Shown: positions 15,617-31,203 of the stretch, piece after piece
Position numbering within the stretch: the stretch's first letter is position 1
Layout of the letters: each line of letters opens with the position of its first letter
From: Rhodothermales bacterium
GTDB lineage: Bacteria > Bacteroidota > Rhodothermia > Rhodothermales > UBA10348
Assembly (NCBI GenBank): GCA_040221055.1
Contig: JAVJVN010000011.1
Coordinates: forward strand, 63,376 to 127,375
Reading direction: 5' to 3'
DNA: 64,000 bases
Notes under the pieces: model-generated
Seen by the model: the letters and a program-made list of their open reading frames with translations, nothing else
The model's database searches: none
Told to the model about the DNA's origin: nothing
Program-made: the position numbers and the translations under genes

Positions 15617-16246
15617 ATGGCGTTCACGGCTCTTCCCCTCTTTCCACTCGATCTGGTCCTGTTTCCTGAGGAAGCCATTCCCATCCACATCTTCGAACCC
15701 CGTTACCGGGACCTGCTCTCGGATTGCCTCCGCGAGTCGGCGCCGTTCGGAATGGTACGCATGCACGAGGGGAAAATGGAAAAAATCGGATGCACGGCCC
15801 GGATCCAGGACGTCCTCCGCACACATGACGATGGTGCGAGTGACATCATGGTGGTCGGGGATGAACGTTTCCTGATCGGGGAAATCTTCCACGTGGCCCG
15901 ATACCACACCGCGGATGTGGATGTGCAGGCCGACATTGTGGAGACGCCGGACCTGGAAGAGCGGGAGCGTCTCATTGCCCAGCACATCAAGTTGCTGGAG
16001 TTGGCCGGGCGTACGCCTTCGCCGAGTTCGTACGAGAATCGCCCCCGGGTTTCCTATTTCGTCGGTCGGAATTCAGGCCTGTCCACCGAGCAGCGCCAGC
16101 TGCTGTTGGAAATGCGAAGCGAGGTGGAACGGATCCGATACATGGTCGGGCACCTGCTGGAGTTCATTCCGGCTGTGGAGCGGGCCGAGTCCCTTCGCCG
16201 GAAAATCAGTTCCAATGGTCATTTTCCGGATTTCCCTCCCGAATAG
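15617..16246 (+). CDS. LON N-terminal (substrate-binding) domain protein
   Basis: LPLFPLDLVLFPEEAIPIHIFEPRYRDLL is the typical start of stand-alone LON-domain proteins. About 200 aa. Confidence 0.75.
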   Translation: MAFTALPLFPLDLVLFPEEAIPIHIFEPRYRDLLSDCLRESAPFGMVRMHEGKMEKIGCTARIQDVLRTHDDGASDIMVVGDERFLIGEIFHVARYHTADVDVQADIVETPDLEERERLIAQHIKLLELAGRTPSPSSYENRPRVSYFVGRNSGLSTEQRQLLLEMRSEVERIRYMVGHLLEFIPAVERAESLRRKISSNGHFPDFPPE

Positions 16247-16291
16247 CGGGGTTGCGGCATGTAATTTGCAGGTGGATGGGTACCTGATCCC

Positions 16292-17734
16292 TTGACTCGA
16301 CCCGACTTTGCCGTGAACGTGACCCACGCTGTCCAGACCGGACTTCCCACGCGTAAATTGTTGTTGCGGATGCTGCTGCCCGGCGGACTCGTCGTGGTGC
16401 TGGCCGTCGTGCTGGCCTTCTTCTGGGCGCGCGAGCGCATTGAAACGTCGGCATGGGCCGGCCTCGAGGCCACCGTGCAAACGGTCTTTGACAGCCACTC
16501 TGCCGTCCAGGGCAGTGGAAACGGCCTTTCTGCGCTTGTTCGGCGCAGCGGTCTGGAGCGGATTTGGGTGGTGGATGCGACCGGCAAGGTCGTGGCGTCG
16601 TCCATGCCGCGGGATGTCGGGGCTCCACTTGATCCCTATTGGTGGAGGGCCGTGAAGGACATGCAGACCGGCTCCTTGGTCACGTCCATGCCGTATGGCG
16701 CATCCATGGTGGCCGTTGTGGCCATCCGCGACGCATCGTTGGGCCGCTGGGCGGTTGCCGTGGGTCCGGAGCCGCCCGTCGCATCCCAGGCCATCAGAGC
16801 AGGGCTCGCCATTCTCGGCGTGAGTCTCACTATGTGGATCCTGATTGCGCTGGCCATGTGGTATGGCGTCATTGTACGGCTTCACGGACCCCTCGATGCC
16901 CTGGATTCGGGCATGATGTCCGTGTTGCGTGGAGAGACGCCGTCGACCGCCACGCTGGACATGCTTCAGGCGAGGACCGAGCCGATGCTGGGGGGCCACG
17001 CCGCCTGCAGCACCGACTTGTTGCGCACCGCCCTGTCGCATGCGCGTCGGGCAGACCGCTCCGAAGCGGCGACCCAGGGCCTTCTGGACGCCCTTCCGGT
17101 ACACGCCATGGTGGTCCGTCGGGACGGGACGGTTCTGGCCCGGAACAGCCGGGTGCCGGACGGCGGTGGCCCTGCAAGGATCCTGTCCGACCTGTCCACA
17201 CACATGCCCGTGACCGAAATCCGTACGTGGCTGGACCGGGTGGGGCCTTCCAAGGCCGGGGCGGAACGCGTCCTGCTGCAGGATGGTCGACTCCTGACGG
17301 TGCAGCCGGTCCTGTGGGCCGGTGAACCGGCGTGCCTGGTGCTTGTCGAAGCTCGACCGGATGCAGAAGGAGTTGAACCAGGCGCCGGGAATCATCCGAG
17401 CGCCGGGAGCCATCCGGAACGGGAGGATTGGGACGCGCTCATTCAGGGGGCGGGCCTGCAGGCCGTCGTGTTCAATGAGGACGGGGACTGCCTGTACACG
17501 ACACCCGGAATGGACGCGGCCGATCTGCGGGCCTTCCGACGGGATGTACTGGCGGACGACGCCAGCCGCAACGCGTTCGATGCATGGATGCAGGAGCGGC
17601 CCGACACGCGTGCGCAGCGTCTGAACATGGCCTCTGTCGGTGAGGTGGACTGGCACGCCCGCGAGATTTCCTGGCGGGGCACCGATGCCGGATTGTTGTG
17701 GGCGGTTGCCGAAAGGGAACACACGTTCAACTGA
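16292..17734 (+). CDS. Membrane sensor protein (TM, periplasmic domain, TM, two PAS-like modules) with no kinase core
   Basis: TM1 LLPGGLVVVLAVVLAFFW, approximately 150-aa loop, TM2 LAILGVSLTMWILIALAMWYGVIV, then two PAS-like segments (LLDALPVHAMVVRRDGTVLARN... and LIQGAGLQAVVFNEDGDCLYTTPG...). TTG start is uncertain; GTG 16316 is an alternative. Confidence 0.55.
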   Translation: MTRPDFAVNVTHAVQTGLPTRKLLLRMLLPGGLVVVLAVVLAFFWARERIETSAWAGLEATVQTVFDSHSAVQGSGNGLSALVRRSGLERIWVVDATGKVVASSMPRDVGAPLDPYWWRAVKDMQTGSLVTSMPYGASMVAVVAIRDASLGRWAVAVGPEPPVASQAIRAGLAILGVSLTMWILIALAMWYGVIVRLHGPLDALDSGMMSVLRGETPSTATLDMLQARTEPMLGGHAACSTDLLRTALSHARRADRSEAATQGLLDALPVHAMVVRRDGTVLARNSRVPDGGGPARILSDLSTHMPVTEIRTWLDRVGPSKAGAERVLLQDGRLLTVQPVLWAGEPACLVLVEARPDAEGVEPGAGNHPSAGSHPEREDWDALIQGAGLQAVVFNEDGDCLYTTPGMDAADLRAFRRDVLADDASRNAFDAWMQERPDTRAQRLNMASVGEVDWHAREISWRGTDAGLLWAVAEREHTFN

Positions 17735-17750
17735 AGTTTTCACCGATATC

Positions 17751-29570: not shown

Positions 29571-29578
29571 GGAAGACA

Positions 29579-30244
29579 ATGGACAGTACAATCGTACTCT
29601 GGATGGGGATGGGGATGATTGCCGTCGGGGCAGGCTTCCTGTACGTCCTGTTCAAGGACAACCCCGCACGCAGGCCCCGGGACCTGATGGAATGGACCGG
29701 TACGGTGCTGTCGGTCCTGCTCATAGTCGCTGCCGCGGCGCTGATTGCCGTATCCCGGCAGACCGGGTCCAATGCGGCTGAAGGCCAGGCCACGGCTACG
29801 CCGTCCACGTTCCAGGACATGATCATCGAGGCACCGGCCGGGAATTTCAGCTTCACGGGGCTGGATTCAGGGGCCACAGCCGACCTGGATGCGTACCGGG
29901 GCAAGGTGGTCCTGCTCAATTTCTGGGCCACCTGGTGTGCTCCGTGCCTGGAAGAAATTCCGGCGTTGAACCGACTGCAGAAGAAATACGGGGAGGACGG
30001 ATTCGTGGTGCTCTCCATTTCGGATGAGGACCCCGGGATCCTGAAAGCCTTCGAAGCCCAACTGCCCCTGGATACGGAATCGGTTTACGTGGATTTCGGC
30101 ATGGACTTGCCTGTGCCGTTCCGCGGCGCATTCGATATCCGTCCAACGTCGTTTGTCGTGGACCGGGAGGGGACCGTGCGGCGGTACATCCTGGGCAACC
30201 GCCCCTACGACTTTTTTGAAACCGCCATCCAACCGTATCTGTGA
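29579..30244 (+). CDS. Membrane-anchored TlpA/ResA-type thiol:disulfide oxidoreductase (thioredoxin fold)
   Basis: ATG 29579, 9 nt after the previous stop. One TM (GMGMIAVGAGFLYVLF). VVLLNFWATWCAPCLEEIPALNRLQKKYGEDGFVVLSIS. The upstream part of track ORF 29273.. overlaps the preceding gene. Confidence 0.85.
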   Translation: MDSTIVLWMGMGMIAVGAGFLYVLFKDNPARRPRDLMEWTGTVLSVLLIVAAAALIAVSRQTGSNAAEGQATATPSTFQDMIIEAPAGNFSFTGLDSGATADLDAYRGKVVLLNFWATWCAPCLEEIPALNRLQKKYGEDGFVVLSISDEDPGILKAFEAQLPLDTESVYVDFGMDLPVPFRGAFDIRPTSFVVDREGTVRRYILGNRPYDFFETAIQPYL

Positions 30245-31203
30245 TTCGTCTTCTCTGGGTAATCGCGGTGCTCGGCGTGGGGGCTTCGGCATGGGTCGCC
30301 CCGACCGCCAATGCACAGGTCACGCAGGCATCCTTCCGGGCGGATTTCCTGGGGGGGCAGTCGGACCGGTTGGGGATGCGGACGGACCGGACGGAGCGCA
30401 GCGTGCCGCTGGCCTTCGTGATGTCGGCCGTCTTGCCGGGAGCCGGTCAGGCTTACAATCGGGACTGGGTCAAAGCGGCTATCGGTCTTTCCGTGGAAGC
30501 GGCGGCCATTACGGCGTACTCCATCATGCGGACGCGCGGTCTCCGGATGGAGGACGATTTCCGTGACTTCGCCCACCGGGATTGGTCGCCAGGTCGCTAT
30601 GGCATGTATCTGAACGACTATACGGATTATCTGAACCTGGAATTCAATGCGGGTATAGATGTGCCGCGTGTACACGTACCCGGCCAGGTGGATTTCACGC
30701 GTCCCGACGCGTGGACCTCTGCCGACGAGGCTGCGGTGGCCCAGATGGTTTCCGAAATCCGCACCGTGGAGCGGAACCTGTTCCATGCAGAGACGGGTGC
30801 CGCGCTGTCCCATCAACTCCCTACGTTCGCGTCCCAGCAGTACTACGAATTGATCGGCAAGTACTTCCAGTTCGCACCGGGTTGGGACGATTATCCGGAG
30901 TGGGGCAACCTGGAGGACGGCTTCACGCAGGCCATTGACCCGGTCATGACGGGGCCCGGCGGGACCAAGCCGAACGTATCGGCCAAGTTCTACGCCTACG
31001 CCGACGACCACGGGCAGGCACAGGATCTGCTCCGGTCGGCGAGTCGTATGTCCTTCATCTTCATCCTGAACCATCTGGCGGCCGGCATTGACGCGGCCAT
31101 CAGTGCGAAGCTCCACAACGACCGGCTGGACACGCGGATGGGCATGACCTATGGCCCGGGCGGACGGATGGAGCCGGTAACCACGGTGGCGTTCCGGTTC
31201 TGA
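30241..31203 (+). CDS. Hypothetical envelope protein with DUF5683-like N-terminal segment
   Basis: GTG overlaps the tlpA stop (GTGA). Signal peptide MIRLLWVIAVLGVGASAWVAPTANAQ. VLPGAGQAYNRDWVKAAIGLSVEAAAITAY resembles the DUF5683 PGxGQxYN motif. Ends in ...TTVAFRF. Confidence 0.5.
   Translation: MIRLLWVIAVLGVGASAWVAPTANAQVTQASFRADFLGGQSDRLGMRTDRTERSVPLAFVMSAVLPGAGQAYNRDWVKAAIGLSVEAAAITAYSIMRTRGLRMEDDFRDFAHRDWSPGRYGMYLNDYTDYLNLEFNAGIDVPRVHVPGQVDFTRPDAWTSADEAAVAQMVSEIRTVERNLFHAETGAALSHQLPTFASQQYYELIGKYFQFAPGWDDYPEWGNLEDGFTQAIDPVMTGPGGTKPNVSAKFYAYADDHGQAQDLLRSASRMSFIFILNHLAAGIDAAISAKLHNDRLDTRMGMTYGPGGRMEPVTTVAFRF

Follow-up and report, generated by a model that had tools for sequence, protein, structure and literature searches.

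A porV-linked gene cassette in Rhodothermales, Balneolales and Ignavibacteria as a candidate type IX secretion accessory module

We analysed a 64,000-nt stretch of DNA (the window) from Rhodothermales bacterium GCA_040221055.1 (contig JAVJVN010000011.1, positions 63,376-127,375 of the forward strand), which carries the genes for PorU and PorV, two type IX secretion system (T9SS) proteins, together with a set of less familiar neighbours. Nine plus-strand open reading frames (ORFs), joined by eight junctions, lie between 15617 and 31203; we refer to them as g1-g3, porU, porV, M6i (g6, an inactivated M6-like protein), g7, g8 and g9, and to the divergent gene before them as g0. We observed that five of these genes, porU-porV-M6i-g7-g9, form a core. 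The last three remain linked to porV even between classes, are inherited as a set and disappear as a set. A previous annotation made without database searches, the sequence-only reading, had counted ten plus-strand ORFs, a number that is reached only when g0 is included. The eight junctions it listed, from 16246/16292 to 30244/30241, were all recovered, and its domain calls for the proteins of the block hold when set against Pfam and NCBIfam scores.

Housekeeping genes flank the block: those for Rho, RadC, a class II tRNA synthetase as well as NadA lie upstream, and downstream come those for an SDF symporter, a sigma factor, an Rce1-like protein, CdsA and MutL. The SDF gene starts 62 nt past the end of g9, and a search of 15617-31266 found no convincing terminator. 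Spacing therefore sets no bound to the unit, and comparative evidence was needed to define it. Six of the encoded proteins are predicted to be exported, and in each the signal peptide is predicted to be cleaved before a Gln (g0, AGA|QQ; PorU, LHA|QV; PorV, SFG|QA; M6i, ASA|QE; g7, VAA|QV; g9, ANA|QV). Since Gln occupies position +1 in all six, this genome of the Rhodothermales type fits the Q-rule described for Bacteroidota (PMC5837995).

The porU gene (18016-22014, plus strand) encodes the T9SS C-terminal signal peptidase or sortase, which has a C-terminal domain (CTD) of its own. It belongs to the NF033707 family (953 bits; cutoff 420) and contains a Peptidase_C25 domain (PF01364, 319 bits). 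The porV gene (22074-23222, plus strand) encodes the outer-membrane barrel that binds CTDs and acts as a shuttle, a member of NF033710 at 301 bits (cutoff 250) that also matches PF19572 (122.9 bits) and the PorV/PorQ family model (341 bits). We confirmed that PorZ and PorQ are missing from the flanking genes, as the sequence-only reading had stated. Among the block proteins the PorQ model NF033711 was matched by PorV alone, at just 86 bits (cutoff 220), and none of the ten reached the cutoff of 260 of the PorZ model NF052228, for which the sole match at E <= 0.01 was the PorU CTD, at 19 bits. Within Rhodothermales, median identity to the window proteins was 62% for PorV, 53% for g7, 48% for g9, 47% for PorU and 44% for M6i, which makes PorV the most conserved protein of the cluster.

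The gene directly after porV, M6i (23212-26262, plus strand), encodes a dead M6-like domain, followed by a single beta-propeller and a probable type-A CTD. At 674.4 bits it is a member of NCBIfam NF052323, 'T9SS-dependent M6-like inactivated metalloprotease' (cutoff 600). The loss of the catalytic HExxH motif, noticed previously in this one copy, proved general to the family: the motif occurs nowhere in any of the 75 members collected, while G-x-P-D-L-F is retained. The window copy reads A-S-F-L-N-F-L-G-A-P-D at the M6 HExxHxxGxPD site. An AlphaFold2 (AF2) model (predicted local distance difference test score, pLDDT, 72.8) shows an N-terminal alpha/beta domain, a single propeller at ~560-900 and an Ig-like CTD at ~930-1016. 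Its best Foldseek matches were the periplasmic sensor domains BT3049, BT4663 and BT4673, to which the authors of the PorZ crystal structure had also likened the architecture of PorZ (PMC5121618). In whole-model Foldseek searches with both M6i and g7 the propellers dominated, and the searches were uninformative on the M6-like domain and on the g7 barrel.

The M6i C-terminus scores below the thresholds of the general sorting-domain models (TIGR04183, 21.9 bits, cutoff 23; PF18962, 18.4 bits, cutoff 27). It is 31% identical to the PorU CTD (E = 2e-8), is ~88 aa long and is without an 8-residue insertion found in the PorU CTD. As a CTD bearer, M6i is a predicted T9SS export. The near-identical tails that the earlier annotation had pointed out are present, EKLAIIR in PorU and YKLAIIR in M6i, but they are not special to this pair, being the usual ending of both families: PorU orthologues generally end in [EG]K[LM]x[VI][IL]R and M6i orthologues in [IV]K[IM]A[VI][IV][KRH]. 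We rejected the KLAIIR tail as a signature of PorU and M6i for this reason, and also because an unrelated CTD protein at locus L076 ends in a similar way (IKMILLR).

The next gene, g7 (26259-29570, plus strand), encodes a protein of 1103 aa with a signal peptide, a gluzincin domain, a TolB-like propeller at ~320-610 and an Omp85-type barrel at ~666-1098. Peptidase_MA_2 (PF13485) was matched by the window copy at 34.7 bits (threshold 32.4), together with PD40/TolB families. HEFLH at 134-138 and Glu194 in the motif AWLAEG identify an MA-clan gluzincin; His134, Glu135, His138 and Glu194 are invariant in 28 Rhodothermales sequences, and of 64 orthologues drawn from all lineages, 63 keep an intact HExxH. 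The g7 gluzincin is thus predicted to be catalytically intact. The structural model (pLDDT 70) contains a helical zincin domain, a propeller that matches TolB in Foldseek (E = 1e-11) and ~16 long strands between 666 and 1098.

Omp85 barrels carry a loop-6 motif of the (V/I)RG(Y/F) type and a beta-13 motif of the (F/Y)xDxG type. In g7 the loop-6 sequence is ARGYPF, and R973, G974 and Y975, like D1019 of beta-13, are invariant in the same 28 sequences. Across the 64 orthologues a strict R-G-[YF] is found in 28, the commonest variants fitting a relaxed [RK][GS]Y-P-[FY], and the beta-13 Asp is retained in 44, with [FY]x[DE]xGNxW as the pattern of the common variants. The Omp85 model PF01103 did not match the window copy; it did match the Ignavibacteria-type orthologues L059, L035 and L065, at 46, 31.8 and 25.3 bits (threshold 24). 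Pfam, motifs, the model and these orthologue matches together show that g7 had been correctly described as a fusion of zincin, TolB propeller and Omp85 barrel. Neither Pfam nor the model revealed a POTRA domain, and a low-confidence linker of ~55 aa joins propeller to barrel.

With a median identity of 53% against 47% for PorU, g7 appears to be under stronger constraint than PorU, and as the second most conserved protein after PorV it looks like a housekeeping protein rather than fast-evolving cargo. None of the ten Omp85/TpsB subfamilies that Heinz and Lithgow described in 2014 (PMC4104836) has this architecture. The closest likeness is to PlpD (type Vd) and the 'Metallo' subfamily, in which an Omp85 barrel likewise has an N-terminal enzyme that replaces POTRA domains or adds to them. 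PlpD, however, joins a patatin lipase to POTRA, whereas g7 joins a Peptidase_MA_2 gluzincin to a PD40/TolB propeller. We rejected membership of g7 in the 'Metallo' subfamily, which carries PF00149 and not a zincin (PMC4104836). Public sources label the relatives of g7 'hypothetical' or give them generic domain names only. We also noted a P-C-T-[AS]-C motif in a low-confidence barrel loop (residues ~790-800; window 28630-28660), which is retained in essentially all orthologues, including those of lineages with no neighbouring thioredoxin, and which could be a disulfide or metal site.

The last gene of the core, g9 (30241-31203, plus strand), encodes a protein that is either exported or membrane-bound and combines a DUF5683 hairpin with a conserved domain of ~190 aa. 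The DUF5683 match (PF18935, 36.0 bits against 26.7) spans residues 58-99 and 42 of 151 model positions; the remaining ~220 aa fit no known family. An alignment of orthologues shows the conserved motifs W-S..RYA and FSH.LP..G.QQYYELIGKY.QF.PGW.D. Public sources name the relatives of g9 'hypothetical', save for a single JGI label, 'TM2 domain-containing membrane protein YozV'.

We assessed the conservation of the locus by scanning GTDB, each species represented by a single genome, with an alignment of M6i. The scan gave at least 411 relatives, of which the best 80 loci were kept; these come from bins of Rhodothermales, Balneolales and Ignavibacteriales/Melioribacteraceae. Bins labelled Ignavibacterium, Gracilimonas, Balneola and Rhodohalobacter contain orthologues. 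Each genome was examined within ±10 kb by tblastn with the ten window proteins, and only loci with enough flank were counted. PorV lies directly upstream of M6i in 74 of 74 loci and PorU upstream in 62 of 66; downstream, g7 follows M6i in 63 of 64 and g9 follows g7 in 52 of 57. The order porU-porV-M6i-g7-g9 is colinear in Rhodothermales, Balneolales and Ignavibacteria, and porV-M6i-g7-g9 is intact even in four Balneolaceae genomes that have no porU upstream. Clustering of all ORFs at these loci revealed nothing beyond the five genes that is common across orders. The flanks differ from group to group: thiolase, a Cys/Met pyridoxal-phosphate enzyme, PASTA, Rpe and PhoH in Balneolales, endonuclease III (EndoIII) and an HD protein among others in Ignavibacteria, and NadA and SDF in Rhodothermales.

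Two further observations concern these loci. In six loci outside Rhodothermales, for example at 12995-13663 of L062, a locus titled 'Bacteroidota bacterium', M6i and g7 are separated by an ORF of 222 aa (cluster family 29) that has no match in Pfam. Three M6i loci, L025, L028 and L079, come from bins labelled Actinomyces sp., Chitinophagales and Chromatiales. Their identity patterns match those of Rhodothermales, Balneolales and Ignavibacteria, so they look mis-binned or mislabelled; the Actinomyces sp. locus is a 1.5-kb contig that is 62% identical to the window M6i.

The reverse analysis started from 80 metagenome contigs picked by similarity to PorV. Here M6i follows PorV directly in 48 of 59 loci (Ignavibacteria-like, 16/16; Balneolales-like, 21/23; Rhodothermales-like, 11/20). 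Every M6i observed adjoins porV, and not every porV has an M6i. The closest relative that we found, L082, with a PorV 84% identical to that of the window, has the order g1-g2-g3-porU-porV-thioredoxin, followed by an unrelated polytopic membrane protein and SDF-sigma-Rce1; M6i, g7 and g9 are all absent. Variants without the three genes and with the same SDF/sigma/Rce1 flank were seen in L082 (6568-11039), L090, L093, L094 and L096, where porU-porV is followed by the thioredoxin in L082 and L090 and by an unrelated membrane protein in L094. The cassette is thus not obligatory for porUV. Since every M6i sits beside porV and the trio is absent jointly where it is missing, M6i, g7 and g9 behave as one losable unit.

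The thioredoxin gene g8 (29579-30244, plus strand) lies between g7 and g9 in the window and encodes a membrane-anchored TlpA/ResA-like thiol:disulfide oxidoreductase with the active-site motif WCAPC. AhpC-TSA (60.5 bits) and Redoxin (55.2 bits) were both matched above the Pfam threshold. The protein shares the membrane anchor, the thioredoxin fold and WCxPC with the TlpA/ResA reductases, but it scores below every equivalog cutoff (TlpA, 71 against 230; ResA, 67 against 170), and in the genome it lies with porUV, not with genes for cytochrome maturation. It is present in 17 of 20 Rhodothermales-like M6i loci and in 0 of 39 others, and it still adjoins porV in L082 and L090, both of which have neither M6i nor g7. 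Because it remains beside porV where M6i, g7 and g9 are gone, we group it with porUV and not with g7; to judge from gene order, it is a Rhodothermales add-on. A thioredoxin that serves g7 is not favoured, since PCTxC is kept in lineages without g8 and g8 stays at porV where g7 is absent.

Set against the PorU-PorV-PorZ-PorQ complex of Porphyromonas gingivalis (PMC11285876, PMC8545088, PMC12365241), the locus is a predicted module of the T9SS, for accessory functions or attachment, that is built from other components. PorU and PorV are canonical here too, and a CTD-bearing, non-catalytic propeller protein (M6i) and an extra outer-membrane barrel are encoded alongside them. PorZ itself (5M11; PMC5121618) shares with M6i the CTD-mediated secretion by the T9SS, the lack of catalytic activity (predicted for M6i), a propeller and the same Bacteroides sensor domains as structural neighbours. 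The CTD region of M6i finds PorZ 5M11 as its best PDB sequence match, a weak one (E = 0.26). PorZ, however, has two seven-bladed propellers and a retained CTD, whereas the M6i model has one propeller behind an added pseudo-protease domain, and its CTD is shorter. In place of PorQ, a FadL-like paralogue of PorV, the locus encodes the Omp85-type barrel of g7 with its zincin and TolB-like propeller. To our knowledge, porZ and porQ of P. gingivalis are not clustered with porUV.

The module had been called undescribed, which is true in part. M6i is already curated as NF052323, a name that covers T9SS dependence only and conveys neither the constant position after porV nor the partners g7 and g9. 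No NCBIfam model specific for g7 or g9 was found, and searches of the literature on DUF5683 and on the T9SS in Rhodothermia, Balneolia and Ignavibacteria gave nothing on this cassette. Neither the names in NCBIfam nor the literature that could be searched mention that M6i is fixed to porV, or that the g7 and g9 families are its neighbours there, and these points appear to be new.

With moderate confidence, we infer that M6i, g7 and g9 act with PorV and PorU after translocation, at the outer membrane, as a PorV-centred T9SS accessory cassette. The specific roles of the three proteins within it are much less certain. M6i would reach the surface through the T9SS and serve as a non-catalytic binding partner held by its CTD, in a role like that of PorZ. 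On this view g7 would be an outer-membrane-tethered peptidase, gated by its propeller, which might trim or clear T9SS-related polypeptides such as cleaved CTDs or stalled cargo, with g9 as a membrane partner. The Rhodothermales thioredoxin may serve porUV, for example by keeping the catalytic cysteine of PorU reduced.

Several points weigh against this reading. The cassette is dispensable or relocatable, as M6i follows PorV in just 11 of the 20 Rhodothermales-like metagenome loci. M6i does not match the PorZ model NF052228, its AF2 model has one propeller and not two, and the TM-scores of its Foldseek matches are ~0.2, with generic matches to the propeller. The NCBIfam name calls it just 'T9SS-dependent', that is, cargo. 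A weak argument in the same direction comes from the CTD: in P. gingivalis, cleaved CTDs measure 67-88 residues and the retained ones, which have an extra hairpin, 96 (PorZ) and 108 (PorU) (PMC11285876), so that the short M6i CTD without the PorU insertion suggests processing like cargo. Finally, the N-terminal domains of g7 may be periplasmic or at the surface, so that its access to PorV-bound CTDs is presumed.

The main rival takes M6i and g7 as a proteolytic or adhesive cargo complex of the cell surface, in which M6i is a substrate-binding pseudo-enzyme, merely exported by the T9SS, and g7 an anchored protease exposed in the manner of type Vd; the place beside porV would then reflect co-expression and no role in secretion. 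We regard this as possible, if rather unlikely. The short, apparently ordinary type-A CTD of M6i and its family name agree with it. So do the porUV loci that have no cassette, as would be expected if its function were dispensable, and Omp85 proteins with N-terminal enzymes that they export or may export have been described (PlpD and the 'Metallo' subfamily; PMC4104836). Cargo genes, however, are normally scattered and turn over fast, whereas M6i stands directly after porV in 74/74 loci from three classes. The cargo view also has to accommodate a g7 that is more conserved than PorU and that is without POTRA, and no sign of translocation of its N-terminal domains was seen.

The sequence-only reading had instead joined the whole block of nine or ten genes, g0-g3 included, into one T9SS regulon or operon; on such a view g2 and g3 would act as a PorXY-like regulator. 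The upstream genes are as follows. The divergent g0 (14199-15515, minus strand) encodes an exported protein of 438-441 aa that ends in ...LRFEF and is probably an outer-membrane barrel; its start is 101 nt from the first plus-strand ORF, in keeping with the shared region of ~100 nt reported before. It has no Pfam, NCBIfam or PDB match. We rejected g0 as a relative of PorQ or PorV, given a profile-profile probability of 0.2% besides the lack of Pfam and PDB matches, and its membership of the module is doubtful. The product of g1 (15617-16246, plus strand) consists of a LON N-terminal (substrate-binding) domain only (PF02190, 83.7 bits) and, with no predicted transmembrane segment, is tentatively assigned to the cytoplasm. 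The 480-aa membrane protein encoded by g2 (16292-17734, plus strand) is predicted to cross the membrane twice (residues 21-48 and 167-197), with a loop in the periplasm and a PAS-like region in the cytoplasm. The window copy shows no Pfam match and no kinase domains, its orthologues give faint PAS matches, and identity among relatives is ~27%. The small g3 (17751-18023, plus strand) encodes a 90-aa DHp-like helical protein with the H-box HHDVNSPL and a HisKA score of 26.4 bits, just under the cutoff of 26.9.

Tight spacing, the 8-nt overlap of the g3 end with the porU start (18023/18016) and the lack of internal terminators all speak for a single unit of this kind. So does the persistence of LON and DHp genes beside porV in six contigs without porU and the trio, in the order LON-(MBL)-DHp-porV, where MBL is a metallo-beta-lactamase-fold gene (L102, L107, L109, L110, L112 at 5611-9146, and L121); these contigs are possibly a single lineage. 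We nevertheless consider the whole-block regulon unlikely. Only Rhodothermales-like loci have g0-g3, and there synteny extends just as much to the NadA, SDF, sigma factor, Rce1-like, CdsA and MutL genes, so that the conservation of g0-g3 is indistinguishable from inherited gene order. The g2 position is held by an MBL-fold gene in L010 and L112. Pfam detects no HATPase_c (catalytic ATPase) domain anywhere in the block, a receiver domain is likewise missing, and g0 is unrelated to PorV and PorQ. By spacing, the SDF symporter at 62 nt would have to be included too. The proposed porU-porV accessory module thus stands for its downstream half. M6i, g7 and g9 recur with porUV across orders, and the LON, sensor and DHp genes and g0, like g8, occur in Rhodothermales-like loci only; as far as gene content indicates, g0-g3 are lineage-specific neighbours and are not supported as members of the T9SS module. 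A supplement of PMC5053529 gives a metallo-beta-lactamase protein, PG1571, as a predicted T9SS 'component', and it contains no per-species PorZ/PorQ table.

A bolder form of the PorV-centred accessory cassette would have M6i, the Omp85-anchored zincin g7 and g9 replace the PorZ/PorQ half of the attachment complex in the early-branching classes Rhodothermia, Balneolia and Ignavibacteria. M6i would then be the CTD-retaining adaptor and the g7 barrel its membrane anchor, and by taking cleaved CTDs off PorV the g7 peptidase would make the shuttle free for reuse. We hold this to be quite improbable at present; if true, T9SS components would gain a new class and Omp85 proteins a new functional type.

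General quality control of the envelope appears more doubtful still. Here g7 would be a periplasmic protease tethered to the outer membrane, comparable in role to BepA or DegP at the beta-barrel assembly machinery (BAM). Together with g9 and also the thioredoxin it would look after outer-membrane proteins at large, and its linkage to porV would be incidental. By default, Omp85 proteins have their N-terminal domains in the periplasm, TolB-like propellers and TlpA-like reductases are typical periplasmic modules, and a role in periplasmic quality control has been proposed for other Omp85-enzyme fusions (PMC4104836). Neither the strict co-occurrence with a CTD protein and porV nor the joint loss of M6i, g7 and g9 with the thioredoxin kept is explained in this way. 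That there is no functional link at all, the gene order being inherited synteny, is highly improbable: the entire region, housekeeping genes included, is syntenic within Rhodothermales, but across orders, with PorV identity down to 41-46%, only porU-porV-M6i-g7-g9 persist while every flank changes.

The T9SS mechanism is known almost wholly from Porphyromonas and Flavobacterium, and the cassette offers concrete candidates for missing or alternative post-translocation components in other lineages. Loci of the L082 type, which are without it, form a natural comparison set. The protein g7 also widens the range of Omp85 proteins, since a zincin and a TolB-like propeller stand in it for POTRA domains, and it raises the same topology question as PlpD, periplasmic versus surface.

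Some minor observations on the window were also recorded. A scan for sigma-70 promoters gave fewer sites than shuffled sequence and is uninformative for this phylum. A 552-aa ORF at 7285-8943 (plus strand), upstream of the Rho gene and overlapping it, has a very high first-position GC (0.84) and no Pfam match; it may encode a protein of low complexity, or the frame may have been mis-called. The sole Rfam match was a tRNA-Arg(CCG) outside the block (32879-32953, minus strand). It is followed by a strong 14-bp hairpin terminator (32876-32845), the sole convincing terminator between 13 and 33 kb, which belongs to the tRNA and not to the block.

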